IMG/VR virus record: IMGVR_UViG_3300044769_000137
Source: a virus
Direction: 5' to 3' (one strand)
Length of the DNA stretch: 35,292 nt
Shown: positions 2,536-28,845 of the stretch, one piece after another
Layout: each line of letters opens with the position of its first letter
Numbering within the stretch: position 1 is the first letter of the stretch
The notes under the pieces: model-generated
The model's input: the letters and a program-made list of their open reading frames with translations, nothing else
Database searches by the model: none
What the model was told of the DNA's origin: nothing
Position numbers and translations under genes: made by a program

Positions 2536-3230
2536 CTAGCCCCTCGTGCCGTTGGGCAGCGCGGCGGCGGCCAGGATGGCGGCCTGCTCCTCGGCGGTCT
2601 GGCGCTTCGTGCCGCCCTTACGGGGCACGAAGTCGTCCAGGCGGAAGGGACGGGCCCGCCGCTTGGGGTTGCGGTTCGCGTTGGCCAGGATGGTGGCGAT
2701 CAGGGCGAATCTCCGATCCTCGCGCTCCTGCTGCAGCTCGTAGCGGTGACTCAAGCCGAAGAACTCCCGCAGGGTCAGCCCCCACAGCTCGCTGGGCGTC
2801 AGTCCGAAGTCGTAGACGCCGACGCTCCAGACGCGATCCCATTCGACGCGGGATGCCGCCGCGCCGCCCGGTTCTGCGCCAAAGGGCGGGCGGCTGTACC
2901 GTTCCCTCCGGCCGCGGGCGCGGGCATGGCCACCCCGACGGCCTGGTCGATGGCCGCGCGGATCTGGCTGAAGTTCTCAATGTCCACGATCTCGTACACC
3001 TGCTCGAGGGTCAGGTCGGGATCCTCATGGCACAAGCCGGCCCACAGCATGGTGGTGACGCCCTCGAGGGTGCGCGACCACTCGGCGAGCGCCTCCTGCT
3101 GCTCGATCCCGATGCCAGACGCCTCCTCGATGCGGCGGAGCGCCCCCAGCGTGAAGCGCAGGTGGCGCGGGCGGTCGAGCTCGAGCCGCAGCCCGCGCAC
3201 CGGGTCGGCGCCCTGGACGATCTCGGTCAT
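2536..3230 (-). CDS. Tail assembly chaperone G-T fusion made by a -1 programmed ribosomal frameshift at 2880-2886
   Basis: The -1 frame is open from 2976 to 2536. After the slip it reads PFGAEPGGAAASRVEWDRVWSVGVYDFGLTPSELWGLTLREFFGLSHRYELQQEREDRRFALIATILANANRNPKRRARPFRLDDF..., which is clearly protein-like and gpT-like. The frame relation between 3230 and 2754 is exactly -1. Confidence 0.7.
2799..3230 (-). CDS. Tail assembly chaperone (gpG-like, 143 aa, zero-frame product)
   Basis: Lies between the major tail and tape measure genes. GGAGGAG RBS 6 nt before the ATG at 3230 (the track start at 3245 is a GTG inside the RBS). The translated tail after the slip site looks non-protein-like. Confidence 0.8.
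   Translation of the reverse strand: MTEIVQGADPVRGLRLELDRPRHLRFTLGALRRIEEASGIGIEQQEALAEWSRTLEGVTTMLWAGLCHEDPDLTLEQVYEIVDIENFSQIRAAIDQAVGVAMPAPAAGGNGTAARPLAQNRAARRHPASNGIASGASASTTSD
2880..2886 (-). promoter_or_regulatory. -1 frameshift slippery heptamer C CCT TTG (X XXY YYZ)
   Basis: Zero-frame codons are cgC CCT TTG. Re-pairing to CCC TTT enters the open gpT frame. It is located 27 codons before the G stop, as in lambda G/GT-type systems. Confidence 0.65.
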
Positions 3231-3397
3231 GGTCGACTCCTCCACTGCCGCACCAGGCTACTCACCACGAACCACCAGAAGCCCGGATGCCAACGGTGAA
3301 TCGTCACCGTGAAATCCGCATACGCGCGTCCGTCCGCACCGACGTGGACGGCATTCGGACGCAGGGGACTCAGTTTCATCCAGCTGGGCGGTCTCAT
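3227..3397 (-). CDS. Possible small ORF (56 aa, MRPPSWMKLSPLRPNAVHVGADGRAYADFTVTIHRWHPGFWWFVVSSLVRQWRSRP)
   Basis: Not in the track (under 60 aa). AGGAG lies 8 nt upstream of the ATG at 3397. Its TGA overlaps the chaperone ATG (ATGA). GC3 is visibly lower than in neighbouring genes, so it may be non-coding spacer. Confidence 0.3.
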   Translation of the reverse strand: MRPPSWMKLSPLRPNAVHVGADGRAYADFTVTIHRWHPGFWWFVVSSLVRQWRSRP

Positions 3398-3409: not shown

Positions 3410-4147
3410 TTATGTGGTGGCCCGCACGATGTCGAGGGTGTACGTCTTGGTCGCCTTGCCCGACTCGGCCACCTCGATGAACGCCCGCGTGATGGAGCCC
3501 GCCGCCCCCAGCGCGACCGCGCCCGACGCCACGCCGGTGGCCACCGTGGTCCCGTTGACCGTGATGGTCCCCACCGCCGCAGTCGGCGTGATGGTGACCG
3601 ACGAGCTGCCGGTCGGGACGTTGACCACATAGCTGGTGGTCGACTGCGCCTTGGCCGGTACGGTGTCGGTTGCCGTGCTCACCACGAAGAAGGGCGTCGT
3701 GAGGCCGGCGGCGAAGGTCACCGTGAACAGGCCCTGGCCCGACAGGCGGATCTCGCCGTTGAACTCGAGGTTGGCGTCCATCTGCGGGTTGAATTTGGTG
3801 GTCTTGAGGAAGCCGCCCCCCTCCCACTGGCCCATGCCGTTGGGGAGCGTGATGCGGTACGGGTACTCCGCCTCGTACACGAACTCGCCCTGGGTCTCCT
3901 GGATCATGCCGAGCTGGGAGGGGTGCGCGACCCAGTAGCCGCTGAAGGTCATGGTGCCGGGGTCCAGCAGCCCCCGCGCGAAGCGGCGGAAGCCGCCGGG
4001 GCTGCCGTGGGTGGTGCGTTCCACGTCGTCGGCTTCCGGCCCGAACTCGCCGATCTCGTACAGCCCGGCGATGGTCTCGAAGCCGGTGCCCCGATCGACC
4101 TCGAGGATAGTTCCAAATCCCAGGATCGCGTCAACGTCCAGCGCCAT
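3410..4147 (-). CDS. Major tail (tube) protein with C-terminal cadherin-like/Ig-like beta-sandwich domain (245 aa)
   Basis: Lies immediately upstream of the chaperones. The N-terminal ~140 aa resemble TP901-1/phi13-type tube proteins. The C-terminus TSYVVNVPTGSSSVTITPTAAVGTITVNGTTVATGVASGAVALGAAGSITRAFIEVAESGKATKTYTLDIVR fits the cadherin-like beta-sandwich pattern. A GGAGG RBS overlaps the upstream stop. Confidence 0.8.
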   Translation of the reverse strand: MALDVDAILGFGTILEVDRGTGFETIAGLYEIGEFGPEADDVERTTHGSPGGFRRFARGLLDPGTMTFSGYWVAHPSQLGMIQETQGEFVYEAEYPYRITLPNGMGQWEGGGFLKTTKFNPQMDANLEFNGEIRLSGQGLFTVTFAAGLTTPFFVVSTATDTVPAKAQSTTSYVVNVPTGSSSVTITPTAAVGTITVNGTTVATGVASGAVALGAAGSITRAFIEVAESGKATKTYTLDIVRATT

Positions 4148-4150
4148 GGC

Positions 4151-4615
4151 TTACCTCCACAGGTAGAGATTCCGCTTGTTGATGTCGAGGAACGCCTCGA
4201 ACCCGATGTAGCTCTTGTTCGCCCGCGTGACGATCCCCAACGTCGGCTCCGCCCCCCGCAGGAGCGCGCTGGTGCAGGTGTGGTCGAGACTCTGGTCCTG
4301 GCAGAACGCCTCCAGGGTCGCCTCCCAGAACGCCTCGGCGATCAGGATGGCCTGCTGGCTGTCGGCGATCGCCTCCGCCGCGATGAACTGGAGGCGCACC
4401 GCGTAGCCGATCTCCCGCAGCGCCATGCGCCGCGCGGGGTCGACCGGCAGGAAGGTCCACTCGTTCTGAAAACACCTCGGCCCCGGCAGCGCGTACTGCG
4501 GGTCGAGGAACGAGCGGTAGACCTTGGTGACCGTGTAGGGGCCAGGGGTCGTGATGGTGAGGCCCTCCTCGAGGGCGATGATGCGGTCGAGACAGGGGCC
4601 GATGGTGCCGGTCAC
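4151..4615 (-). CDS. Tail terminator / tail completion candidate (154 aa), assigned by position
   Basis: Last gene before the tube protein. GTG at 4615 overlaps the upstream stop (GTGA). An alternative GTG lies at 4624. The longer track ORF (to 4786) has an Arg/Gly-rich, non-protein-like N-terminus. Confidence 0.55.
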   Translation of the reverse strand: MTGTIGPCLDRIIALEEGLTITTPGPYTVTKVYRSFLDPQYALPGPRCFQNEWTFLPVDPARRMALREIGYAVRLQFIAAEAIADSQQAILIAEAFWEATLEAFCQDQSLDHTCTSALLRGAEPTLGIVTRANKSYIGFEAFLDINKRNLYLWR

Positions 4616-7857: not shown

Positions 7858-8156
7858 CAGCCCCCTCGGGCCTTGTTGCTGGTCTGCTCGGGCGTGACGG
7901 CCTTGGTCGCCGCGCCCTGGCGGGCCTTCGTTTCCTCGGTCTCTGGCCCCGCCTCCTCCGTCTCGGCCGGGGGCGGCGCGGGCGCGTTCGGGTCGGCCGG
8001 GGGCGGCAGCTGGCCCGCATAGGGCGCCGCCTCCTCCTCGGTCAGGGTGCCGCCCTCCCCGACCAGCAGCGCGGCCGCCTCCGGGGAATCCTCCGGCACG
8101 ATCTTCGTCCCGTCCGCGTTGCGGTACAGCCGCTCGGGACTCACGTAGTTCGGCAT
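7857..8156 (-). CDS. Hypothetical Pro/Glu/Ala-rich protein (99 aa)
   Basis: AGGAGG lies 6 nt upstream of the ATG at 8156 (MPNYVSPERLYRNADGTKIV...). The C-terminal half is low-complexity and acidic. Confidence 0.55.
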   Translation of the reverse strand: MPNYVSPERLYRNADGTKIVPEDSPEAAALLVGEGGTLTEEEAAPYAGQLPPPADPNAPAPPPAETEEAGPETEETKARQGAATKAVTPEQTSNKARGG

Positions 8157-8170
8157 GGTGCCCTCCTGAC

Positions 8171-8695
8171 CTATGTCTGCGTGCCCACCTTCGTCCACGT
8201 CGGCGCGTAGGTGGTCCCGGTGTTGATGTACAGAATCCCATTCGTGATGTCGGTCAGCTGGGCGCCGATGGCCGCGCCTCGGCCGGTGGCGTCCACGCCC
8301 GGGGTGGTCTCCGCCACCGCCAGGGTGGGGGCCGTGCCGGTCAGGGCGCTGGTGGCAGTCAGGGTCGAGACGGCCATGCGCGCCAGGGTGCCGCCGTAGG
8401 TGAGGGTGACGGTGCCGATACCGGCGGTCAGGGTGCCGGCGGTGGCCACGATGTCCCCGGCCGTGCCGATCGCGTCGAGCGCGGCGTTGATGGCGGCCAG
8501 GAGCGTGGCGTTCACGGCCGACCAGGTGATGGCCGCCGTGTTACGGCCCTCGCGGGTGAAAGTGAAGGTCCCGGCGGTCGGGGTCCCGCCAATGGTGAGG
8601 GTCTGCACCTCGTTGGTGCCGGCCGAGGGCGCCCCCGCGGACTGATAGCCGCTGAGGCCGCCCGGCATGATGACGCCGCCGCTGATGACTGGCAT
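8171..8695 (-). CDS. Head decoration / head-fibre-like protein (174 aa)
   Basis: Lies immediately after the major capsid gene with an AGGAGGAGG RBS. The NEVQTLTIGGTPTAGTFTFT...AITWSAVNATLLAAINAALDAI motif recurs in capsid-accessory proteins of high-GC phages, as far as I recall. Assignment is positional. Confidence 0.5.
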   Translation of the reverse strand: MPVISGGVIMPGGLSGYQSAGAPSAGTNEVQTLTIGGTPTAGTFTFTREGRNTAAITWSAVNATLLAAINAALDAIGTAGDIVATAGTLTAGIGTVTLTYGGTLARMAVSTLTATSALTGTAPTLAVAETTPGVDATGRGAAIGAQLTDITNGILYINTGTTYAPTWTKVGTQT

Positions 8696-8724
8696 GGACC
8701 TCCTCCTGAGCTTCCGCTAATCGG

Positions 8725-9987
8725 CTAGATCCCGGTAATGGTGCAGAAGGCCGCCGCCCGGTAGATTTCCAGGCTCAGCCGTTCCTCAGCTCGGACCAGC
8801 ACCTTGTTGTAGGCAAAGAAGGTGTCGTGCTCGGTCGAGACGTCGATCTGGATGCCCTGCCGTCGACTGATGTGCGAATACAGCGCGAAGTCGCCCAGGA
8901 TGGCGGTGCCCTCAGTGGCAGCCGGAGTGACGACCACCGGCATCCCCCACATGCGCTCGATCCCCTCGTCGGTGGGGCTGCCGAAGATGTAGATGCCGTC
9001 GGCGGTCCGCAGCAATCGAATGTCCTGCCAGTCGTTGGGGTGGATCGCCATGCCGTTGGGGTCGGCGTAGCCGGTGTAACGCACCTTGGTCATGCCCTTG
9101 AACACCGCATCGGGGGTGGGGTCCGCCCCCTTCGCCTGGGTCTGAATGCTTGGCTTGTTGTAAAAGCCGGTCAGGTGGGGCGAGGTGCCGGAGCCGGTCA
9201 GGAGCTCGACCTCCTCCGCCAGCTGCACCATGACAGTCAGGCGATTGTCGATCAAGCTCTGCATGGCCGGCACGTCGTCGAGCTGCTGGTTGGTGACCGG
9301 CAGCGTGGTGGCGATCACCTCCACCGGCACCAGGCGCTCGGTGAAGGCCAGCGCGGATTCCGGCTTGGCCGCGTTCTCCGCGACGGCGGCCGCGTTGTTG
9401 GTGAAGGTGGTCTCCTCCATATACCGAATGGCGGAGAGCGTCGTCGGGTCTTGCGGGATCAGGTCGGCCACCATGGGGCGACGCTGGGCCGACAGCACCA
9501 CGCGCGGGATGCGGGTCGCCTCCGGTGCGAAGCCGGCGGTCAGGGTCATCACGGTTTTCATGTCGACGTCGGGGAGCGAGACCCCGAAGTGCGCCATGGC
9601 GGTGCCCTTCTCCTGCAGGTAGGCCGGATGCTCGGTGAAGAGCGTGCCGAGCGACTTGGCCGCCCGCTCGTGGAGGTCGCCGCCGGGCGCCCCACTGCCC
9701 GCCTCCGGCCGGGGGTGGACGAAGTGCTGGCCGGGCTCGTGGAGCCACCGCTGGCGCTCGGCGTTCTTCTCCCGCAGGTCCTCCGCCTCCCGCAGCGTGT
9801 CCAGCTGCTTCCCGAGGTCGGCGAGCTCGTCGTTCCGCCGTTTGATCTCGGCGGCCTTGGTGGCGGTATCGCCGTCGACGTAGCTCACCTTCGTCAGGTC
9901 AAGCTCCGGACCGGCCTCCTGGAAGATGCGCTCCAGCTGGTCCGATTTGGTGATGATCTCCCCGCGCAGCTCGACGAGTGTAGGCAT
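8725..9987 (-). CDS. Major capsid protein, HK97 fold, with N-terminal coiled-coil delta/scaffold domain (420 aa)
   Basis: Follows the prohead protease. The N-terminal ~100 aa are coiled-coil (EIKRRNDELADLGKQLDTLREAEDLREKNAERQRW). The C-terminal body is typical of the HK97 family (...IRLLRTADGIYIFGSPTDEG...GMPVVVT...). AGGAGG RBS. Confidence 0.9.
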   Translation of the reverse strand: MPTLVELRGEIITKSDQLERIFQEAGPELDLTKVSYVDGDTATKAAEIKRRNDELADLGKQLDTLREAEDLREKNAERQRWLHEPGQHFVHPRPEAGSGAPGGDLHERAAKSLGTLFTEHPAYLQEKGTAMAHFGVSLPDVDMKTVMTLTAGFAPEATRIPRVVLSAQRRPMVADLIPQDPTTLSAIRYMEETTFTNNAAAVAENAAKPESALAFTERLVPVEVIATTLPVTNQQLDDVPAMQSLIDNRLTVMVQLAEEVELLTGSGTSPHLTGFYNKPSIQTQAKGADPTPDAVFKGMTKVRYTGYADPNGMAIHPNDWQDIRLLRTADGIYIFGSPTDEGIERMWGMPVVVTPAATEGTAILGDFALYSHISRRQGIQIDVSTEHDTFFAYNKVLVRAEERLSLEIYRAAAFCTITGI

Positions 9988-10001
9988 CGGGTAGTTCCTC
10001 C

Positions 10002-10739
10002 TTACCGTGCGCCAAGTCGGGCGCGGATGTGGTCGTACTGCAGACGCAGCAGTTGCCCCGCCCGCTCGGGCGGTTCCGCCGGGGGCTCCGCGAGGAGCGT
10101 GGCGGTGAGGTAGGGGTGCAGCTCCTTCAGGAGCGTGACGTGCTCGGCGGAGAGATCGTGCCCGGCCTTCAGCGCGGCCAGGACCTCGCGCAGGGTCGCC
10201 GGCTCCAGGTCGTCGGCGGACTTGATCGAGAGCAGCTCGGTGGCGTCATTCGCCCCCACCAGGACGGGCGACCACTCGTACCACTCCCCGCGCACGAGGT
10301 CCCGCACCCCGGTTTTCTTGTCGTGGGCGTCCTCGAGCACGCGGTAGCCGATGCTGAACTCGTCGATCGCCCCGAACTTGAGGTTCGAGTACGCCTCACG
10401 GCCGGGCTGGGTGTCCAGGTTGAACTGGCCCTTCACCCACAAGCCGCCCAGGTGCGTGAGCGAAGGCGGCAGGCGCGGATCGCCGGGCAGGAGCTCCTGG
10501 GCGTCGAGCGTCTTGGCGATCGGCGTGAGCCAGTCGTGGCCCCACACGCCTTTGGCTTTGGGGCGGCCGTCCGGGGTGCGGCGGCGGGCCAGGGAGTCCG
10601 CGAAGAAACCGGGGAGGACCCGCTCCCCCTGCGCGTCGACGTTCCCGAAGACGCTCGCAATGAGCTCGGCGGTGCCGGTGGCGTCGTCGAGGACCTTGAA
10701 CTCCGCCGCGTCGAAGGTCTTGCGCTCCCGCTCGGCCAT
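10002..10739 (-). CDS. Prohead maturation protease, HK97 family (S78) (245 aa)
   Basis: The opening FKVLDDATGTAELIASVFGNVDAQGERVLPGFFADSL is typical of the family, and the gene sits between the portal and MCP genes. There is no canonical SD; the AUG is preceded by U6 and a hairpin. Confidence 0.9.
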   Translation of the reverse strand: MAERERKTFDAAEFKVLDDATGTAELIASVFGNVDAQGERVLPGFFADSLARRRTPDGRPKAKGVWGHDWLTPIAKTLDAQELLPGDPRLPPSLTHLGGLWVKGQFNLDTQPGREAYSNLKFGAIDEFSIGYRVLEDAHDKKTGVRDLVRGEWYEWSPVLVGANDATELLSIKSADDLEPATLREVLAALKAGHDLSAEHVTLLKELHPYLTATLLAEPPAEPPERAGQLLRLQYDHIRARLGAR

Positions 10740-10790
10740 AAAAAAGTGCCCCCGATGCTGCGACTAACGGCCACAAAGCAGCGTGGGCAC
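10740..10790 (-). promoter_or_regulatory. RNA stem-loop plus U6 abutting the protease AUG (translation-occluding structure or intrinsic attenuator)
   Basis: Minus-strand GUGCCCACGCUGC - 16-nt loop - GCAGCAUCGGGGGCAC, with 11 of 13 stem positions complementary, then UUUUUU and AUG. The GGGGG SD-like run lies inside the 3' arm. It sits in the only 93-nt gap of the structural operon. Confidence 0.55.
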
Positions 10791-10832
10791 GAATTTCAGG
10801 TTTAACGGTTTATGGGCAGGATAGTAGCACGT

Positions 10833-10997
10833 TTACGGCGAGGAGCCGCTCTGGTTGCGGGTTTTGCAGCGCGGACAGGTCAGGGCCCAGGGGCGCGTCG
10901 CCTGCTCGAGCAGCAGTTTGCCGCAGGCCGAGCAGCGGATCAGGGTGTCGGTGACCAGCACGGCCTTGGTGGCCGGCGGCCCCTTGACCGCCTTCAC
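10833..10997 (-). CDS. Mu Com-like zinc-ribbon protein (54 aa)
   Basis: VKAVKGPPATKAVLVTDTLIRCSACGKLLLEQATRPWALTCPRCKTRNQSGSSP carries the RC..CgKLL and CPRCK..N signatures with CxxC-x15-CxxC spacing. GTG at 10997 overlaps the upstream stop (GTGA). The track start at 11081 is unlikely. Confidence 0.7.
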   Translation of the reverse strand: MKAVKGPPATKAVLVTDTLIRCSACGKLLLEQATRPWALTCPRCKTRNQSGSSP

Positions 10998-11128
10998 CCC
11001 GTCCCCAGGAGACGATCCAGGACGGCCACCGCGCGGGGCTGGGTGATGAGCCAGAGGCCGACGACGCCGCCGAGCACACACCCGAAGACACCGGACAGCG
11101 CAATCACCAACAGATCCCCTGCCGTCAC
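10994..11128 (-). CDS. Small single-pass membrane peptide (44 aa)
   Basis: VTAGDLLVIALSGVFGCVLGGVVGLWLITQPRAVAVLDRLLGTG. GTG at 11128 overlaps the portal stop (GTGA), and its own stop overlaps the Com-like GTG. It is the only plausible part of the 525-aa track ORF 10994-12571. Confidence 0.45.
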   Translation of the reverse strand: MTAGDLLVIALSGVFGCVLGGVVGLWLITQPRAVAVLDRLLGTG

Positions 11129-12483
11129 GCCGGCACCTCCACCTCGCCCAGCAGCGCGCGGATGTGGCCGTTCAACGCGGAGCCCTCCGGGCGCCCCACC
11201 GGACGCGCCACCTGCTGGGTGGCCTGCTGCTGGTCCTCCGGATCGGTCCCCACCGGGATCACCTGCAACGACCGCGACAGGACATACACCTCGTCCTCCG
11301 GGAGGATCGGATAGCCGAGCTCGCGCTTGGCCTGGCTGCGGCTGATGAGCCCGGCCCTCCACTGCCCGATGATGCGCTCCGATTTGGCGTTCTCGTCCTC
11401 CTGGAGCACCCGCACCTGGCTGAGGTCGAACCACACCCGCCACTGCGTCAGCTCCATGAAGTCGCCGAGCAGCTGGTTGGTCAATTCGGTGGCGATCTCG
11501 CGGTACAGCGGGATGATGGTGGACTCGAACGCCTCCTCCCGGTATTCCTTCAGGGTGGCGCCCACATGGGTCGACGTGAGGCCGACCCCGAGGCCGACCA
11601 CGGCCGCGTTCACGCCCAGCACCGCCGTGATGCGCTCCTCCGGGATGCCCCGCAGGCTCCGCATGTCGAGCTCCTGGGGCGAGAATCCGAACTGGTCGAC
11701 CTGGATCTGGCCCTCGAGCACCAGGGGCTCGCCCCGGTGGCTGCCGGTCGTTTTCTCCATGAAATCCCGCTTGATCTGCTGGCCCACCGGGGCCGGAATC
11801 GAGCCCTGTTTGGGAGAGAGAATGATGCCCGGCACCCCGAGATTTTCGAGGAGCGTGGCGGTCATGGAGGCCGCCGCCTCGTCGGTCATCACCTCGCGCA
11901 GCAGGCACTGGACCGGCGCATTCCCGAGGCGCGGATCGAGCGGGTCCATGCCGTCGGGTAAGCGGATCACGTCCTCGTAGCGGAGCTCGAGGACGTCCCC
12001 GCCGTTCGGGGTGTAGCGGTAGTACGTGATGAAGTCGTCCCCCTCGCTCATCGGCGTGATGGTGGCGGCCGGAGCCCACCAGAGCTCGACCACGTTCCCG
12101 CTCGTCGAGCGAACCTTCACCACGTAGGAGATGCCGTTCAGGATGCGGTCGGCGATGAGGCCCTTGAAGAGCGTGATGCCCGAGTAGTAGCCGTTGGGGC
12201 GCGTCAGCAGCCAGAGCGCCGAGCCCGGCCACATCTCCGCGTGGGTGATCCAGCCCTGCTGGGTGCGGTCCCACTGCTGGAGGACCACCGGCGCGTCCGT
12301 AAAGTTGCGCTGAATCCACCGCACGCAGGCCACCACGATGCCGGACTGGTCCGCCCGCACCCCTCGGAGCTGCGCCACCCCCGGCCAGTAGGACCAGCTG
12401 CTCGAGACCCTGTGGCGCATCTTCGTCAGCGCGGTGCGCGTGGTCCGCTGGATGTACTGCAGGATGTTCGTGAAGATGCTCAT
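11125..12483 (-). CDS. Portal protein, HK97 family (452 aa)
   Basis: Follows TerL. ATG at 12483 overlaps the TerL stop (ATGA). Size and sequence character are typical of Phage_portal. Confidence 0.9.
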   Translation of the reverse strand: MSIFTNILQYIQRTTRTALTKMRHRVSSSWSYWPGVAQLRGVRADQSGIVVACVRWIQRNFTDAPVVLQQWDRTQQGWITHAEMWPGSALWLLTRPNGYYSGITLFKGLIADRILNGISYVVKVRSTSGNVVELWWAPAATITPMSEGDDFITYYRYTPNGGDVLELRYEDVIRLPDGMDPLDPRLGNAPVQCLLREVMTDEAAASMTATLLENLGVPGIILSPKQGSIPAPVGQQIKRDFMEKTTGSHRGEPLVLEGQIQVDQFGFSPQELDMRSLRGIPEERITAVLGVNAAVVGLGVGLTSTHVGATLKEYREEAFESTIIPLYREIATELTNQLLGDFMELTQWRVWFDLSQVRVLQEDENAKSERIIGQWRAGLISRSQAKRELGYPILPEDEVYVLSRSLQVIPVGTDPEDQQQATQQVARPVGRPEGSALNGHIRALLGEVEVPA

Positions 12484-14222
12484 GCGCTCCCCCAGGCCCA
12501 CGGTGCGGCCTCCGCCGGCTTGGCCACCAGCACCCGCACCACCGCGTCGAGCAGGGCGGACACGCCGTCAATGCGGCGGCGATGCTTGTAGGCGTCGACC
12601 TTGACCGGCTTCCGCGCGCCGTCGCGGGTCTCCTCGACGGCGGTGTTGCTGACCATCCAGCGCAGGATCGGGTTGCCCCGGTGGCGGAACTGGCCGGCGG
12701 CGAGGGCGCGCTCGACCTCCGTCACGGCCGGCGACAGCGAGCTAAAGGTCTGCGGGATCAGCACGCATTCCGGCCCCAGGTCCGCGAGCAGCCCGAGCAG
12801 CGTGGTGCTGTTCCAGGTGTCGAGGTCGATCTCGGTGGCGTCGGCCGCGAAGGTCTTGAGCTCGTCGGCGATGGCCTGGTCGTCGCGGTAGTCGCCCGGC
12901 GTCGTCAGGAGCCAGCCGTCCTCGATCCAGGCGCGGTAGGGCACCCCGTCGCGCTCCTCGGCCTCCTTCACCAGGTCCTCGGGAATCCAGAAACGGGCGT
13001 CGACGTCGAGCCCGCCGTCCGCGCCGCGTGTCACCTTCACGGCCGCCGAGAGGTCCTGGCGGCCCCCTAAGTCGACGCCGACATACCGCTCGCCGGTGCG
13101 GCGGAGCTCGGGGGATGCCGCCGCGTCCCATTTGGCGAGGTCGAGCCAGGCGGTCTCGGACTGGGTGTCGGTGTCGAGCCGCAGGCGGATGAAGGCGTTC
13201 CGTCGGCCAGGGGTGGCGATCGCCTTGTCGCGCTCGGCGATCAGCTCCTCGAGCTGGACGGTGGCGCCTAAGCTCGGGTTGCCCTTGATGTAGACGGTCG
13301 GGTCTCTCCAATCGTCCTCGGGGTCCAGGCAGGCAATGTAGGCGAACAGTCGGCCGTCGATCGGGCCGCTGGTGAGCGCCTTGCGGGCCCGCTCGTCGGT
13401 CTCGTTGTAGATCGAGGCGCCGGCCACGCCGGCGGTGGTGATAAACAGGATAAGCGGCTGCTCGCGGGCGCCCATCGCCGTTTCCATGGCGTCCACCATG
13501 CTCCTATCGCGGTGGACGTGGAGCTCGTCGAGCAGCACGCAGCTCGGGTTCAGGCCGTGCTCGGACTGGCTATCGCGCCCCAGCGCCGCAAACTGGCTCA
13601 TGGTCTCGTACACGATCAGCTTCGAGACGGTCCGCAGGTGGGCCACGCGGTTCGCCAGGAGCGGGTTGCGCTCGACCATCTGCTGGGCGACCGTCCACAC
13701 CTGCTTCGCCTGGTCGCGTTTGGTGGCCACCGAGTACACCTGCGCGCCGCTCTCGCCGTCGAAGTCGAGCATCCAGAGCCCCACGCCACCGGCGATTGAA
13801 CTTTTCCCACACTTCCTGGCCACGCGGGCGTAGGCCTCGCGGTAGAGCCGCACCCAGCGGCGGAGCTGCGGGTCGTAGAGCTGCCAGCCGAACACGCTGC
13901 CGACGACGAACGCCTCCCAGTCCAGGAGCTCGAGCGGCTGCCCGGCCCAGCGGCCCTGGTACTGCTGCAGGTGGCCGAAGAAAGTGAACACGGCCTCGGC
14001 CTCGGCCCGATTCCAGCGCAGGTCGGTCCGCGTCTTACTAGCCACCAGATCGAGCAGGTCCAGATGCCGCTGGCAGGCCAGTCGCACGTACTGCCCGGCC
14101 ACGATGGCGCCGGAGGTGACGTCGAGCGCGTACTGGGTGGCGCGGTCGGGCTTGCGGCCCCGACGGACGGGCGTTTTGGGGGACGGAGTGGGAGCCTCGG
14201 GCGGGCGATCGAGCGTAATCAC
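12480..14222 (-). CDS. terL: Terminase large subunit (580 aa)
   Basis: Terminase_1-like. P-loop-like VARKCGKSSIAGGVGLW, followed by an acidic VLLDELH Walker B-like motif and a C-terminal nuclease region. GTG at 14222 overlaps the TerS stop (GTGA). Confidence 0.92.
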   Translation of the reverse strand: MITLDRPPEAPTPSPKTPVRRGRKPDRATQYALDVTSGAIVAGQYVRLACQRHLDLLDLVASKTRTDLRWNRAEAEAVFTFFGHLQQYQGRWAGQPLELLDWEAFVVGSVFGWQLYDPQLRRWVRLYREAYARVARKCGKSSIAGGVGLWMLDFDGESGAQVYSVATKRDQAKQVWTVAQQMVERNPLLANRVAHLRTVSKLIVYETMSQFAALGRDSQSEHGLNPSCVLLDELHVHRDRSMVDAMETAMGAREQPLILFITTAGVAGASIYNETDERARKALTSGPIDGRLFAYIACLDPEDDWRDPTVYIKGNPSLGATVQLEELIAERDKAIATPGRRNAFIRLRLDTDTQSETAWLDLAKWDAAASPELRRTGERYVGVDLGGRQDLSAAVKVTRGADGGLDVDARFWIPEDLVKEAEERDGVPYRAWIEDGWLLTTPGDYRDDQAIADELKTFAADATEIDLDTWNSTTLLGLLADLGPECVLIPQTFSSLSPAVTEVERALAAGQFRHRGNPILRWMVSNTAVEETRDGARKPVKVDAYKHRRRIDGVSALLDAVVRVLVAKPAEAAPWAWGSA

Positions 14223-14686
14223 GCGGTCCCCCGCTTCCGCTGGCGCAGGCGGGCCAGGGCGTCGGCGTCGTCCTCGGCGGGCTCGGTCAGGTTGGGCCGC
14301 ACGCCGGGGAACTGCGGGCGCGCTCGGCTCGAGGGGTCGAGGCCGAAGGAAGCAGCCAGAGCGCGCATTTGGCCGATCTCCGCTGCCGACATGAACTTAC
14401 CGTCGGCCAACAGGTCGAGAAACTTCGCGTGAAGCGCGCAGTAGACGGTGAGCTGGAGGTCATCCACCACCGTGATAAGTCCCGAATTGGCGAGCGACTG
14501 ATGGATCAGATTCCAGGTCCGTTTGGCGCGTCGACTCAATTCCTTGGGTGGCCGGGGGGTCTCCGGGGTCGTTGGCGGCAACGCCGGTTGGATCTCGTCC
14601 ACGCGAATGGGACGATTCCCCGCCGTCCGCCCGTTCGGCTTGGCCTCCAGGCGCTTGATGGCGGTGGGCTTCGCGCGGCCGGTCAA
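14219..14686 (-). CDS. terS: Terminase small subunit, P27 family-like (155 aa)
   Basis: ...RRAKRTWNLIHQSLANSGLITVVDDLQLTVYCALHAKFLDL...MRALAASFGLDPSSRARP is the typical P27 TerS pattern. TTG start overlaps the HNH stop (TTGA). Confidence 0.8.
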   Translation of the reverse strand: MTGRAKPTAIKRLEAKPNGRTAGNRPIRVDEIQPALPPTTPETPRPPKELSRRAKRTWNLIHQSLANSGLITVVDDLQLTVYCALHAKFLDLLADGKFMSAAEIGQMRALAASFGLDPSSRARPQFPGVRPNLTEPAEDDADALARLRQRKRGTA

Positions 14687-15120
14687 CGGCGAGCCCCCCG
14701 CGACGACGGGAAGGAAACGCTGTGCGTTTTGCTGTCAGTGGTGGTGCGGTTGGGTTCCCCCCGAAACAAATGGCCTGCCGTAACTGGTTCTGACCGCTGC
14801 TGTCGAGCGTGGCGCCCCTGCTGGGCGGTGAGCTTGGCATGGCAGGCGTGGCAGGTGCCGCGCAGATTCTCTCGGTCCTCGCCACCGAGCAGGTAGCGCG
14901 GCCGGATGTGGTCGACCTCCACCGAGGGAGCCACCCCACACAGACGGCAGGTGGGCTCCTCACGCAGCACGCGCAGGCGCAGCTGGGTCCACCCAGGTGG
15001 GTGCGGGCGGTCCACCGGCCGGGCCCACCGACGGCGCGTGTGGGCCGGGCACCAGCTCACGTTCGGTCCGACGAGGACGCCACAGCCAGCATGAGCGCAG
15101 GGGTGCGAGGGTGCGTGCAC
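14683..15120 (-). CDS. HNH endonuclease associated with the terminase (145 aa)
   Basis: CRLCG...VDHIRPR...NLRGTCHACHAKL is an HNH motif, in the classic HK97-like position upstream of TerS. GTG start preceded by GGAGGGAG. The C-terminal ~40 codons look like read-through of non-coding, lower-GC DNA. Confidence 0.85.
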   Translation of the reverse strand: MHAPSHPCAHAGCGVLVGPNVSWCPAHTRRRWARPVDRPHPPGWTQLRLRVLREEPTCRLCGVAPSVEVDHIRPRYLLGGEDRENLRGTCHACHAKLTAQQGRHARQQRSEPVTAGHLFRGEPNRTTTDSKTHSVSFPSSRGARR

Positions 15121-20363: not shown

Positions 20364-20857
20364 AGCAGCCGCTCCTGACGAATCGCCGGCACCGGCCCCA
20401 CGTGACGGCGGCGCTGGCCCTCGTTGCGATCGTGGTTGCACACGTGGCAGAGCGTGCGCAGGTTCTCATCCGTGGTCGGGCCACCCTCGTCGCGCGGCAC
20501 CACGTGATCGACCTCCAGGCGCACCGGCCAGCCGTCCAGCGCCAGCTCCGCGCTGCCCACGCCGCAGAGATGGCAGCGCGATCCGTCCCGCTCGAGGATG
20601 CGTATGCGTTGGGCCGCGCTGATCTCCCGCCCATCCCCGCGCGGCTCGTTCATCCGCGCCGGGAGCAGACGGCTATTCCCTCGCCCATCGAATTCAATCG
20701 GGTATCCCCTGGCCCGCAGCTTCCGCAGAGCGCGCGGCACGTCATCGCCCCCGGTCAGCGTGCGAAGAGTGCCATGAGTTACCCACTCCCCCAGATGGGC
20801 CTGCAGGTAGGTCACGATCAGCTGCGGGTTCGACGCCTTCCGTAGCGGCCCGCTCAT
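20360..20857 (-). CDS. HNH endonuclease with N-terminal winged-helix-like domain (165 aa)
   Basis: CHLCG...LEVDHVVPRDEGGPTTDENLRTLCHVCNHDRN. ATG at 20857 overlaps the methyltransferase stop (ATGA). Confidence 0.85.
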   Translation of the reverse strand: MSGPLRKASNPQLIVTYLQAHLGEWVTHGTLRTLTGGDDVPRALRKLRARGYPIEFDGRGNSRLLPARMNEPRGDGREISAAQRIRILERDGSRCHLCGVGSAELALDGWPVRLEVDHVVPRDEGGPTTDENLRTLCHVCNHDRNEGQRRRHVGPVPAIRQERLL

Positions 20858-22233
20858 ATCGACGTCGCCATCCGACGCGCGGCCGCCTCGATGTACTGCT
20901 GCGACTGGTCGTAGCCGATCGCCTGGCGCCCCAGCCGGTGGGCTACGACCACCGTCGTGCCGCTCCCCACGAACGGGTCGAGCACCGTATCGCCAGGAAA
21001 CGAAAAGAGCGTGATGAGCCGTTGGGGGAGCTCCTCCGGGAACGGAGCGGGGTGACCTTCCCACGGGTAGGACTCGCCCCGGAAGGACCACAGCCCATTG
21101 GTCCAGTCCAGCCAGTTCTCGCGGTCGATGCAGGCCGGTCCGTCCCGGTGCCACTCCTCGCGGTAGAACACCGCGATCATCTCCACCCGCGCGATCACGT
21201 GCGGGGCCGCCGCCGAGTCGACCGACCCGCGCGCCGTCGATTTGTTGATGTTGTTCTTGTTCCAAATGATCGTTGTCCGGTAGCTCCAGCCAGCCTCCAG
21301 CGCCGCGTCCACGGCCTGGGCGTAGCAGGGCCGCTCCACGGGCTCCGTCGTGTCGAGCGGCACATTGAGCGCCAGGCGCGCGCCACGCTTGCCCACCCGG
21401 TAAGCTTCCCGGAGGGAGTCAACCAGGAGCGCCCGCCATCCCCCGGCCTCGTCGCTCATCCCGTGGTAGGAAATGCCAACTCCATAGGGCGGGCTCGTGA
21501 CGATCAGGTGCACGGTCTCGTCGTCGAGCGGGAGATGGCAGGCGTCGGCTACCTCGAGCGTGACGGGGAGCAGGGCGCGGGCCACCAACGGTTTCGGCTC
21601 GGCGGCTTTCCTCGCGGCTTCCTGTTTGCGAACCACTTTGACCGCATCGGCCAGGGGCAACGACCCGTCATATACCTGCTTCGCCAGCTCCGGCGCGTGG
21701 TCTCGCACCTTCTTCGCGTCACGCATTTTCTGGCGACTCACTCCGAGTAACCTGGCCGCCCGCTCGGTTGCGTCCGGTCGATGCCGCACGATCTTCGGCG
21801 ATGGTTGCTCCCCCGCAATCCCAATGTCCGCCGGTATGGCGGACATTGGGATTGCGGGCTGCGAACGCTGATGATTGGCCTCTGCCACGGCTCGCCGCCG
21901 ATGCTCCGCGGCTTCATCGGCCAGGGCTCGCTCAATATTGAGGTTGACCACCATCATTTGGTCGTCGCTCAGCTGGCGGCGCCGAAGATTCACACTCACG
22001 ACAAACTGCACCAGCGAGCCCTGGCCGTGCCAGTCGCGGAACAACGGAGCCACGCCGCACTCGAGGCACGCGCGATACCGATGGCGACCGTCGATGATCT
22101 GCCCCTCGTACAACCAGATGGGGTCGATCAGGCCGTGGGCGCGGATGTCCTCCACCAGCGCCGCGTATTCATCCGGGCGCAGCGCAGGGAAAAGCTCGGC
22201 GACCGGGTGGAAGGCGAGGGGCTCGTTGGTCAT
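20854..22233 (-). CDS. ParB-like N-terminal domain fused to a beta-class N6A/N4C DNA methyltransferase (459 aa)
   Basis: ParBc signature IIDGRHRYRAC. Motif IV is IVTSPPYG, followed later by motif I LDPFVGSGTT (the IV -> I order defines beta class). ATG overlaps the upstream stop (ATGA). Confidence 0.9.
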   Translation of the reverse strand: MTNEPLAFHPVAELFPALRPDEYAALVEDIRAHGLIDPIWLYEGQIIDGRHRYRACLECGVAPLFRDWHGQGSLVQFVVSVNLRRRQLSDDQMMVVNLNIERALADEAAEHRRRAVAEANHQRSQPAIPMSAIPADIGIAGEQPSPKIVRHRPDATERAARLLGVSRQKMRDAKKVRDHAPELAKQVYDGSLPLADAVKVVRKQEAARKAAEPKPLVARALLPVTLEVADACHLPLDDETVHLIVTSPPYGVGISYHGMSDEAGGWRALLVDSLREAYRVGKRGARLALNVPLDTTEPVERPCYAQAVDAALEAGWSYRTTIIWNKNNINKSTARGSVDSAAAPHVIARVEMIAVFYREEWHRDGPACIDRENWLDWTNGLWSFRGESYPWEGHPAPFPEELPQRLITLFSFPGDTVLDPFVGSGTTVVVAHRLGRQAIGYDQSQQYIEAAARRMATSI

Positions 22234-25724: not shown

Positions 25725-25779
25725 CTACTTGCTCCTCTCGCCGTCCCGTGTTCAGTGCACGTGGGCGGCGTTTTTGTGT

Positions 25780-26101: not shown

Positions 26102-26455
26102 GTGGATACGGTGGGGCAGCGCTTGCGGGCGTTGAGAAAGCGAGCTGGATTGACCCAGGTGGAGTTGGGGTCAAAGCTCGGTGTGACGGGAGCGACGATC
26201 TCTGGTTACGAGACCGGGTACAGCCGCCTAGTCGCGGATGAGCTGCCGAAGTACGCCGGGGTGCTGAACTGCTCGCCCTGCGATTTCTTCGAGGACGCTA
26301 CGGCGCAGCCGCCCACGCCCACCGAGCCGTTCGTGCCGAGCGCGAGCCAGCGCATGGCGCGGAAGCTGCTCGCGCAAGCCCTGAACCTGCCCGAGGAGGA
26401 TCTGGAGGCGCTGGTGCGGGTGGCCGACCGCTTGCGCGAGCTTCCGCCAGCTTGA
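26102..26455 (+). CDS. XRE-family HTH regulator, CI-like by position (117 aa)
   Basis: GQRLRALRKRAGLTQVELGSKLGVTGATISGYETGYS is a canonical HTH_3. GTG start preceded by AGGGG. Confidence 0.85.
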   Translation: MDTVGQRLRALRKRAGLTQVELGSKLGVTGATISGYETGYSRLVADELPKYAGVLNCSPCDFFEDATAQPPTPTEPFVPSASQRMARKLLAQALNLPEEDLEALVRVADRLRELPPA

Positions 26456-27732: not shown

Positions 27733-27775
27733 GGCGCCGGGGGCCCTCGATCGAGACGGTAACCGGCGCCTTTTT
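27733..27775 (+). terminator. Probable terminator after the nuclease gene
   Basis: GGCGCCGG (27733-27740) pairs with CCGGCGCC (27763-27770), followed by TTTTT. The large 22-nt loop contains the 10-bp palindrome CTCGATCGAG. Confidence 0.5.
27752..27769 (+). repeat. 18-bp direct repeat CGAGACGGTAACCGGCGC, copy 1 (in terminator loop/arm)
   Basis: Identical to 27927-27944. The core GGTAACCGG also occurs at 27882-27890. Confidence 0.9.
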
Positions 27776-27903
27776 CGCGCCTGCTCCAGGCACGCGCTAA
27801 GCCCAATGGACGCGAGTACCCGAAGGGTATCGGGTTGACATGCAAACCGCAAATGCGAGGATCGTAGGCACGAATCCAGCAGGTAACCGGGGGAGTGCGT
27901 TTA

Positions 27904-28845
27904 ATGAAGGTCGCCAAGCCAGAGACCGAGACGGTAACCGGCGCTCGGGACCTCACCGACTACCAGGCGCTGCTCTGGTCCTGGATGCTCACCCTGGAGG
28001 TGGCCGGCAAGAGCTTGGAGACGCGCAAGGTCTACCGCGTGTCCGCCGAGCAGCTGGGCGCCCACCTGCTGGAGCAGGGCATGCCCGTCCACGTCGCCGC
28101 CATCACCCGTGAGCACGTGGAGTCGTATCTGCTCGAGCTCCGTCGCCAGCATCCCACCAGCAGCACGGTCGCCACCCGCTACAAGGGCCTGCGCCAGTGG
28201 TTCAAGTGGCTGGTCGAGGAGCACGAGATCGAAGCCTCACCCATGATCAATATCAAGAAGCCCACCTACACCGAGAAAGAGATTCCCATCCTGCCCGATG
28301 TCGCCGTCAAGCGGATGCTCGACGACTGCAAGGGCCAGGGCTTCGACGATCGCCGCGACCTGGCCATCCTGCGCGTGTTCCTGGCCACGCCGCTGCGTCG
28401 GTCGGAGATCGCCAACCTGAGCGTGACCGACGTCGACCTGTCCGCGCGCACGGTGCACGTGACGGTGAAGGGCAACCGCCAGCGCACGGTGCCCATCGAC
28501 GTGAAGGCGGTCCAGGCGCTCGACCGCTACCGGCGCATTCGCCCCACTTCGCGGTGGGCAGGTGCGGCGGGGTTGTGGCTGGGCCAGCTCGGGCCCCTCA
28601 CCGACAGCGGGCTGTATCAGGTGCTCCGCCGTCGCGCGAAGCACGCGGGGGTGGAGGGATTTCATCCGCACTTGTTCCGTCACAAATTTGCGGACTCGTG
28701 GCTTCGTGCAGAAGGACAAGAGCGGGACTTAATGCGATTGGGTGGATGGAGGAGCGCGGAAGTGATGAGGAAATACGCGGAGAATCTGGCCGAGGAACGT
28801 GCCATCGAGAGTTATCGTAGGCTCAGTCCGGGCGATCGGTTCTAG
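27904..28845 (+). CDS. int: Tyrosine recombinase / phage integrase, XerC/D-like (313 aa)
   Basis: N-terminal SAM-like domain, then catalytic LRRSE (R), HPHLFRH (HxxR) and GGWRS...MRKYAE (W/H...Y). ATG at 27904, 8 nt after GGGAG. Confidence 0.92.
   Translation: MKVAKPETETVTGARDLTDYQALLWSWMLTLEVAGKSLETRKVYRVSAEQLGAHLLEQGMPVHVAAITREHVESYLLELRRQHPTSSTVATRYKGLRQWFKWLVEEHEIEASPMINIKKPTYTEKEIPILPDVAVKRMLDDCKGQGFDDRRDLAILRVFLATPLRRSEIANLSVTDVDLSARTVHVTVKGNRQRTVPIDVKAVQALDRYRRIRPTSRWAGAAGLWLGQLGPLTDSGLYQVLRRRAKHAGVEGFHPHLFRHKFADSWLRAEGQERDLMRLGGWRSAEVMRKYAENLAEERAIESYRRLSPGDRF
27927..27944 (+). repeat. 18-bp direct repeat CGAGACGGTAACCGGCGC, copy 2 (codons 8-14 of the integrase gene)
   Basis: Identical to 27752-27769. 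Confidence 0.9.

Follow-up and report, generated by a model that had tools for sequence, protein, structure and literature searches.

Com of bacteriophage Mu binds a hairpin adjoining the structure that hides the mom start and melts that structure, and its recognition motif, CC(N)2-3GAG, lies in a hairpin loop next to the translation-inhibition structure (TIS) (PMC6483171). Com has so far been a one-off textbook case, in which a tiny zinc protein melts an mRNA hairpin and switches on one accessory gene, mom. The present study concerns a 54-codon open reading frame (ORF) for a Com-like zinc ribbon in the IMG/VR virus record IMGVR_UViG_3300044769_000137 (35,292 nt, hereafter the window), a temperate phage genome of 35 kb and 69% GC. 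The ORF lies in the head module, separated from the gene of an HK97-type (S78) prohead protease by a non-coding gap that ends in a hairpin. Our analysis shows that the ORF and the hairpin have been inherited together by phages with very different head genes. In our best reading, to which we give a probability of about 0.5, the two would constitute a Com-type translational gate on the protease, with terminator activity in addition in this phage.

The first-pass annotation of this DNA, made from the letters alone, had already raised such control as a possibility and was not aware of any such case among morphogenesis genes. In full-text literature searches, neither this RNA element nor morphogenesis genes under Com-type control were found described. 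Beyond that annotation, we report the mobile ORF-hairpin cassette, a conserved -10-type box and the tail-gene contexts.

Results

Co-inheritance of the zinc-ribbon ORF and the hairpin

The exact zinc-ribbon protein is confined to this phage (loci L003-L007 are near-identical DNA), and one relative, at locus L008, is 80% identical. The proteases of L008 and the window are 30% identical, and the portal proteins 35%. The DNA that the two phages have in common starts about 15 nt before the portal stop codon, the final ~15 nt of the portal gene (GGTGnCGGCGTGACG) being already inside it, and runs to the last base of the hairpin. This block comprises a transmembrane (TM)-type ORF, the zinc-ribbon ORF, a 23-nt box matching at 23/23 positions, a spacer of the same length matching at only 6/19, and the hairpin, matching at 37/45. 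L009 shows the same layout, with a protease 87% identical to that of the window.

Searches with the protein alone recovered P0127, L100, L101/102 and L197 (47-62% identical), all just upstream of an S78 protease gene; a homologous hairpin precedes that gene in L100, L101 and L197. In the reverse direction, a looser hairpin-pattern scan of IMG/VR returned nine loci, two of them real, both from one phage (L108/L111), and this phage, found by the pattern alone, carries the ORF. Exact IMG/VR scans for a 21-mer of the box and for the full hairpin found nothing. Relative to the window, these more distant cassette phages have proteases 28-31%, capsid proteins 30-45% and portal proteins 35-43% identical, while the hairpin remains about 80-90% identical overall between phages whose proteases are ~30% identical. 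The order ORF, hairpin, protease recurs in at least six distinct lineages with very different head genes.

A covariance model (R1) built from seven hairpins scores 38-75 bits in each of them. It gave nothing significant in 86 Com-less loci of protease relatives (40-71% identical), from which the box and the ORF are also absent. Scans based on the protease turned up 80 loci in metagenomes and 6 in genomes, with no cassette carrier and no host among them; the genome matches, 39-45% identical, come from metagenome-assembled genomes of the candidate phyla radiation (CPR) and Gammaproteobacteria. One weak R1 match (22 bits), in Arthrobacter phage Wheelbite, was rejected as an ordinary terminator ahead of a TTGACA promoter. 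Judged from these comparisons, the ORF and the hairpin are co-inherited independently of the flanking genes and, in the protease context, exclusively associated.

The hairpin and the predicted burial of the ribosome-binding site

The final 51 nt of the gap consist of the 45-nt hairpin and six U residues (U6), after which the protease AUG (ATG at 10739) follows at once; the N-terminus set by this start lines up with those of homologues, of which 337 were found for the protease. Folding favours the stem, as the first-pass annotation had expected: the hairpin is predicted at -23.9 kcal/mol (z -3.3), a value equalled by 1 of 200 dinucleotide shuffles. The outer 13-position stem drawn there holds, and the 16-nt loop gives way to a longer imperfect stem with a 5-nt apical loop in the minimum free energy fold. 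The claim that the GGGGG of the 3′ arm is the only Shine-Dalgarno (SD)-like run near the AUG was also borne out. Other genes of this phage have SDs of the GGAGG or GGGGG type at similar spacing.

Seven protease-linked versions of the hairpin were compared (window, L008, L009, L100, L101, L108 and L197). All seven have an SD-like run (GGGGG, GAGGG or GGAGGGGG) within the 3′ arm at a distance of 7-9 nt from the start, whatever the sequence of the spacer. The GUGCCC and GUGGCC motifs are constant across the versions; the 5′ partner of the SD arm is GUGCCC in five and GUGGCC in L100 and L108. Rfam, searched at the gathering threshold and at E<=10, gave no credible match to the hairpin.

The accessibility of the ribosome-binding site (RBS) was expressed as its opening energy, that is, the predicted cost of opening positions -16..+3. 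Values were 14.3-23.8 kcal/mol for nine Com-linked genes versus a median of ~6.6 for 51 Com-less protease controls (p 5e-6; p 0.004 in a GC-matched subset), and 14.5 kcal/mol for the protease of the window. By these predictions, the protease RBS is sequestered in the hairpin. Two other readings of the start region were rejected: a GUG in the loop, considered as another start of the protease or as a leader peptide, keeps the frame in only 4/6 versions and lacks an SD, and a frameshift at U UUU UUA fails on the same grounds.

The L008 hairpin is predicted to be more stable (-28.5 kcal/mol, z -3.4), and three of its changes (A7U, U36G, C37U) are compatible with the stem or improve it. Two of its pairs, U7-G39 and G9-U37, are G-U pairs on the sense strand, which argues that the structure acts at the level of RNA rather than DNA. 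The three GTGSCC-type motifs (GTGCCC, GTGGCC and an inverted GTGCCCCC) just downstream of the promoter-like box could otherwise have suggested a DNA operator, at which a regulator, possibly the zinc-ribbon protein itself, blocks or activates transcription of the head genes. G-U pairs form on the sense strand only, and the consistent distance from the SD in the 3′ arm to the start points to a function in mRNA. Furthermore, homology points to an RNA binder (PMC6483171). An operator of this kind appears highly improbable.

The U-run and transcription termination

A stable GC-rich hairpin with an immediate U-run, as expected of an intrinsic terminator, is found in the window (U6), L009 (U7) and L100 (U5GU3). 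The element could thus be a plain terminator or attenuator of the terminase-portal transcript, the zinc-ribbon ORF being unrelated and protease-capsid expression resulting from read-through or from the adjacent -10-like box. The window holds only nine runs of T>=5, and four of them stand directly behind strong GC hairpins. The other three such sites (25771-25775 (+), 27771-27775 (+) and 19973-19967 (-); -24 to -27 kcal/mol) lie at apparent operon ends and are likely intrinsic terminators, so the host seems to use canonical terminators despite the 69% GC. At the same junction, the Com-less loci L010/011, L012, L015, L017-19, L022-24, L032/034, L061, L075 and L082 also have a hairpin and U-run, followed by a free SD. 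For SPP1, stem-loops resembling terminators have been described within late structural operons (PMC6316719). An attenuator at this place, which the first-pass annotation had called odd, is therefore not odd.

The U-run is, however, replaced in four of the seven versions (UGUC in L008, CGACGU in L101, AUUUCU in L108 and UCCU in L197), where the hairpin sequence is kept. Since the U-run is dispensable and the SD-containing stem is not, termination cannot be the conserved function of the element. The hairpin is also conserved beyond the needs of a terminator, its 37/45 match to L008 being set among synonymous sites that differ at 38%; it is strictly linked to the ORF, and a generic terminator scan did not call the hairpin and U6. 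Moreover, the -10-like box lies upstream of the hairpin, where a terminator-then-promoter arrangement would place it downstream. If the box is a promoter, the hairpin falls in the 5′ leader, and "terminator of the upstream operon" becomes an incomplete description. A plain terminator is thus a doubtful explanation, while partial termination in this phage is plausible.

Two side observations concern this junction. L007, which represents a metagenomic variant of this phage, carries two single-nucleotide polymorphisms: that at position 170 splits the called reading frame of the portal gene, apparently by a premature stop, and that at position 904 changes the U-run from TTTTTT to TTTTGT. In the Com-less loci L010/L011, L012, L015, L017-L019, L022, L023 and L061, a different conserved leader is found ~110 nt upstream of the protease start. 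It consists of the stop codon, TTGACA/TTGATA with no -10 evident at 17 nt from it, a block like (C)ATTTAGCGAGCCA, a GC hairpin with U-run and a free GGAG, after which the protease starts. These phages seem to have a conserved element of another kind at this junction.

The promoter-like box

Directly past the stop codon of the zinc-ribbon ORF, the 23-nt box holds an extended -10-like TGCTACTAT at 10829..10821, with TACTAT at 10826..10821. The box is identical (23/23) in both L008 and L009, and the synonymous sites of the adjacent ORF differ at 38%; the chance of 23 invariant sites at that neutral rate is 0.615^23 ~ 1e-5. A TAnnnT hexamer with a G/C-rich prefix follows the ORF stop as GTGCTACTAT in the window, L008 and L009, as TGGTACTAT in L108 and as GCGCTATACT in L100 and L101, and L197 has a canonical TTGACA-N17-TAGAGT. 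Such -10-like hexamers (TACTAT, TATACT, TAGAGT) occur in six lineages; the distance from them to the hairpin downstream is 25-30 nt in five lineages and ~100 nt in L197. The spacer between box and hairpin is 19 nt long in the window, L008 and L009, and its sequence is free; box and spacer together have a GC content of 0.43.

These features would suit an internal promoter combined with a 5′-untranslated-region stabiliser or standby site. Transcription would start ~7 nt past TACTAT, and the hairpin would guard the protease-capsid mRNA from 5′-end-dependent decay, or serve as an RNase III-type site, boosting the most abundant virion proteins. The zinc ribbon would then either activate that promoter by binding DNA, as P2 Ogr does, or be unrelated. 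The position of the hexamer right behind the stop codon in six lineages and the canonical promoter of L197 speak for this possibility, as do the A/U-rich leader, the invariance of the box among diverged neutral sites, and the repetition of the L100 box at leaderless spacing before another ORF. The cassette, moreover, precedes genes for abundant proteins, either protease-capsid or major tail. Nevertheless, the window has no -35 hexamer at 16-18 nt from the -10-like sequence, a consensus scan of 8000..15000 gave 0 promoter-like sites, and TTGACA-N17 is present in L197 only. The sequence of the box varies between lineages except for the hexamer. Nor does a stabilising 5′ hairpin need an SD, yet one lies in the 3′ arm of every version, and the Com relatives are RNA-binding proteins, not known transcription factors. 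We regard this explanation as improbable.

A 15-mer of L100, TAGGCGCTATACTCG, is present in two copies (3850-3872 and 4087-4101) flanking an inserted 72-aa ORF. The first copy gives TATACT-N7-ATG before that ORF, which among actinobacterial promoters is the geometry of leaderless transcripts. The repeat could be a promoter duplication or a target-site-like repeat left by moron insertion. An unrelated 72-aa ORF is also inserted at the equivalent place in L008, the 3′ end of the zinc-ribbon ORF. The box as a repeated promoter of a phage RNA polymerase was rejected, as it occurs once in the window.

The zinc ribbon and its family

The 54-codon ORF has a ratio of nonsynonymous to synonymous change (pN/pS) of 0.29 between the window and L008 (pS 0.385), so it is a real gene under purifying selection. 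The CxxC-x15-CxxC spacing and Com-type residues claimed for it at first pass are present in the translation, where the four-Cys core RCxxCxKLL...CPRCK is found within IRCSACGKLLLEQATRPWALTCPRCK. BLASTP aligned the ribbon core with that of Mu Com at 12/27 identities and a single 1-residue gap. The top two PHROGs of the window protein are Com families, phrog_6417 ("translational regulator", 1e-4) and phrog_13819 ("gpCom", 2e-3); the corresponding values of the L008 orthologue are 9e-6 and 1e-3. The AlphaFold2 model is a zinc ribbon (mean predicted local distance difference test score, pLDDT, 84.7).

To define the family, the orthologue alignment was run with HMMER against all 1.84 billion representatives (E<=1e-3). 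It comprises 236 proteins, nearly all of 45-100 aa, with the consensus D..(I/P)RCxxCGKLLAExxTRPWxIxCPRCKxxN. PF10122 (Zn_ribbon_Com) is the Pfam family matched most often (37/104 members), and the PHROG matches of the same 104 members are to phrog_6417 (54) and phrog_13819 (7), with no other PHROG. The profile of these 104 members aligns to Mu Com in hhalign with 95.5% probability (E 1.4e-8), and the Joint Genome Institute (JGI) annotation of many members reads "phage FluMu protein Com". As far as profile homology indicates, the 54-codon product is a divergent branch of the Com lineage rather than a Pfam-defined member, and the relationship is remote.

The family search also returned the giant proteins P0123 (2604 aa) and P0183 (2940 aa), which carry 9-13 tandem Com-like ribbon matches, and small proteins with two tandem ribbon copies. 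The tandem-ribbon proteins comprise P0123, P0183, P0137 (427 aa) and P0124/P0134.

Other contexts of the family

In two further lineages, L194-196 and L192, the ORF stands after the tail-terminator gene and is followed by a 131-nt gap, a small ORF and the major tail gene. This gap ends in a hairpin with an SD (AAGGAG or GAAGGG) in its 3′ arm, and L194 retains GUGCCCC and GUGGCC. The L192 leader (265-397) has one 5′ arm (GCCUGCAAC) with two possible pairing partners: GUUGCAGGC, followed by U6 and terminator-like, and GAAGGGUGCAGGC, directly before the AUG, where pairing hides the SD. It looks like a leader with alternative structures.

An almost invariant Com-like peptide, TDEFQRCWKCDRLLFESATRPWSIRCPRCKSKNKSG, is present in ~300 viral contigs from freshwater (L114-L191; for example, L114 2423-2608), amid very diverse flanking DNA. 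The next ORF (127 aa), read in a different frame, overlaps the 3′ end of this freshwater ORF. Among cultured phages, gp5 of Arthrobacter phage Ottawa (L097, 1749-1922) is a family member annotated as hypothetical, and the ORF is unannotated in Arthrobacter phages Wheelbite, Laroye, Salgado and LiSara. In Wheelbite (L098, MF140434), where the ORF is at ~24.8 kb (~4024-4200 of the locus), TTAGGAT-N6-ATG comes next, giving gene 35 a promoter geometry of the leaderless type.

Gene neighbourhood

On the minus strand, the gene order is small and large terminase, portal, 44-codon ORF, 54-codon ORF, the 93-nt gap, protease and capsid (Table 1). The first-pass annotation had read GTGA overlaps between the portal stop and the 44-codon ORF and between the stop of the latter and the 54-codon ORF, and both are found; through them, the 44-codon ORF is translationally coupled to the portal gene and to the 54-codon ORF. 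This ORF is annotated as a gene in five JGI contigs. It is conserved in L008 only (36 aa there), where a pN/pS of 0.77 is a weak sign of constraint. The other cassette carriers lack it, so it does not belong to the core of the cassette. The capsid gene has its own strong SD, AAGGAGG, with a low opening energy (7.1 kcal/mol).

Table 1. Coordinates of the features at the portal-protease junction and of accessory genes in the window
Feature	Coordinates	Strand	Remarks
Portal gene	12501..11125	-	PF04860, E 2.5e-42
44-codon ORF, hydrophobic, single-TM-like	11128..10994	-	GTGA overlaps on both sides
Com-like zinc-ribbon ORF, 54 codons, encoding LIRCSACGKLLLEQATRPWALTCPRCKTRNQ	10997..10833	-	CxxC-x15-CxxC
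Non-coding gap, 93 nt	10832..10740	-	GC 51.6% vs 68.7% in the window
23-nt box ACGTGCTACTATCCTGCCCATAA	10832..10810	-	directly past the ORF stop codon
19-nt A/U-rich spacer	10809..10791	-	length 19 nt in the window, L008 and L009; sequence free
45-nt hairpin GUGCCCACGCUGCUUUGUGGCCGUUAGUCGCAGCAUCGGGGGCAC	10790..10746	-	conserved GUGCCC and GUGGCC motifs
SD-like GGGGG	10753..10749	-	hairpin 3′ arm, 9 nt before the protease AUG; only SD-like run there
U6 tract	10745..10740	-	terminator-like; doubles as SD-to-start spacer
Prohead protease gene (HK97-type, S78), presumed regulated gene	10739..10002	-	PF04586, E 6.3e-14
Major capsid gene	9987..8725	-	PF05065, E 1e-41; start 14 nt past the protease stop
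Integrase gene	27895..28845
Repressor gene	26102..26455
DNA methyltransferase gene	20854..22233	-	N6/N4 type
Lysin gene

The gap had been called the only sizeable one in the structural operon. Its length and lower GC stand, and "only" depends on the gene calls: other ORF-poor stretches of the structural region are filled by short ORFs or by ORFs of lower GC at third codon positions. One of these, a 164-nt "gap" behind the putative major tail gene (4147..3410), was considered as a second element and rejected, being occupied by a 56-aa ORF with an SD. This 56-codon ORF (3227-3397 (-), SD GGAG, no family match) lies between the major tail gene and the next gene.

The DNA from 9900..12600 had no similarity match among 50,697 phage records, and the terminase search gave only ~36%-identity matches, in enterobacterial phages. 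High GC, the Arthrobacter-phage relatives and the leaderless-type promoter geometry tentatively point to a host among the Actinomycetota. Elsewhere in the window, the methyltransferase gene is coupled through ATGA to an upstream 482-aa Gp3-like gene, and its RBS is the most structured predicted in the window (20.5 kcal/mol). This is of note because Com homologues in Mu-like prophages adjoin DNA-modification genes; here, the gene is 10 kb from the Com-like ORF.

Discussion

We propose that phages swap, as one unit, a regulatory cassette made up of the 54-codon ORF and the non-coding stretch that follows it. The gap begins with a -10-type promoter-like box, continues with a short A/U-rich leader free of structure and ends in the conserved hairpin, which is predicted to pair the protease SD. 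Without the protein, the hairpin would keep the protease start closed and, with the U6 tail of this phage, would probably also halt some transcripts. Expressed from the terminase-portal transcript upstream, the Com-like protein would recognise the conserved GUGCCC/GUGGCC RNA, in the leader or in the hairpin, and open the stem. With the SD exposed, the protease could be translated, and in phages that have a U-run, read-through into the protease-capsid genes would be favoured. In this way, the head-shell genes would not come on until expression of the packaging and portal genes had taken place. What the sequences themselves show is the layout of the locus, the remote homology to Com, purifying selection on the ORF, its co-inheritance and exclusive association with the hairpin, and an RBS sequestered in predicted structure. 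We infer RNA binding, activation, promoter activity, termination and this biological purpose, the ordering or dosing of head and tail proteins, the mechanism being modelled on Com and the mom TIS.

Several observations weigh against this proposal. For the protein, the window sequence scores 14.1 bits (E 0.033) against PF10122 and misses the gathering threshold of 22.9, so the Com membership claimed at first pass holds by profile homology and by the Com PHROGs and not by the Pfam threshold. Generic zinc ribbons score equally well or better on it, Zn_ribbon_3 outscoring PF10122, NCBIfam gave no Com match, and weak cross-matches are common among zinc ribbons. A PDB sequence search and Foldseek (PDB, BFVD) found generic zinc ribbons only, with no Com structure for comparison, which makes the fold searches uninformative. 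For the RNA, synteny of the ORF, hairpin and protease was found in the relatives as the first-pass annotation had anticipated, and covariation is almost absent: 2/16 pairs across the seven versions, with an unfavourable RNAalifold covariation term. Because the stem is nearly invariant, covariation proof of it was not obtained, and the conservation of the hairpin could reflect sequence recognition or recent transfer rather than pairing. There is also no single common structure, because the best fold of L100 and L108 uses GUGGCC, not GUGCCC, as the 5′ arm. The Mu motif CC(N)2-3GAG is absent from 10832..10737 on reading the sequence, GUGCCC/GUGGCC being conserved instead.

The accessibility values also have to be read with care. 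The protease RBS ranks only 7th of 28 within the window, many RBSs being predicted as structured in this GC-rich phage; the genes ranked above it are mostly translationally coupled, with their sites inside coding sequence. The Com-linked sample is small and partly related, the window and L009 being close. Furthermore, the ORF of the Arthrobacter phages and of the ~300 freshwater IMG/VR contigs stands after head-tail connector genes with no gap behind it, so the ORF is tied to an RBS-hiding hairpin in the branch nearest the window but not throughout the family. Lastly, gating at the level of translation would not by itself control the capsid gene, whose own SD is open.

It is possible, and we say so tentatively, that a Com-lineage zinc ribbon and its own cis RNA operator form an undescribed mobile post-transcriptional gate before the genes of abundant virion proteins in diverse, probably actinobacterial phages. 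If so, the hairpin would be both an SD-hiding structure and, in some phages, a terminator behind a promoter-like box, and it would represent a new cis-regulatory RNA family, a candidate absent from Rfam. Synthesis of shell and tail would then have to await expression of the packaging and portal genes. What is new would be the class of target of a Com-like regulator, the RNA element particular to it and its mobility as a cassette. How the amounts of portal, protease, capsid and tail proteins are set inside long "constitutive" late operons is poorly understood. If the cassette works like Com, Com-type control would be a general, transferable device to time or dose core morphogenesis genes. The pair is compact and directly testable (a protein of ~50 aa and an RNA of ~50 nt), and it offers a hypothesis of function for hundreds of unannotated small phage ORFs, including those of cultured Arthrobacter phages.

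Comparison with known systems

The locus resembles Mu Com and the mom TIS in its small four-Cys zinc ribbon of the RCxxCxKLL...CPRCK type, in a regulator gene immediately upstream of the target, in a target SD and start placed in a stem-loop (here by prediction) and in a conserved RNA element next to or within the stem. In contrast to Mu, the target is an S78 prohead protease gene (or a tail gene) rather than a mom-type DNA-modification gene, and the ORF does not overlap it. The family has TRPW between the Cys pairs and a spacing of 15 rather than 16. One composite hairpin replaces the separate binding hairpin and TIS of Mu, and a U-run in some members and a preceding promoter-like box are further differences.

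With the terminators of late operons such as those of SPP1 (PMC6316719), the element has in common a GC-rich stem and U6 between blocks of morphogenesis genes. It differs from them in its extreme sequence conservation across unrelated head modules, its linkage to one ORF, the SD inside the stem and the start codon directly past the U-run.

In phage lambda, the promoter pR′ is followed at once by the terminator tR′, which gates the late genes and is overcome by the antiterminator Q. The order of promoter-like box, short leader, hairpin with U-run and structural genes is similar here, and expression would likewise need a phage factor. Unlike the lambda arrangement, the present element lies inside the structural cluster, between portal and protease, and not ahead of it; its U-run is not conserved, and its hairpin also holds the SD. 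The candidate factor, too, is a 54-aa zinc ribbon of RNA-binding type rather than a Q-type protein that binds DNA and RNA polymerase. P2 Ogr and P4 Delta are DNA-binding zinc-finger activators of late transcription with a different Cys spacing and no evident similarity to the present protein. They would share with it the role that we propose for it, that of a small phage Cys4 zinc protein controlling morphogenesis genes.

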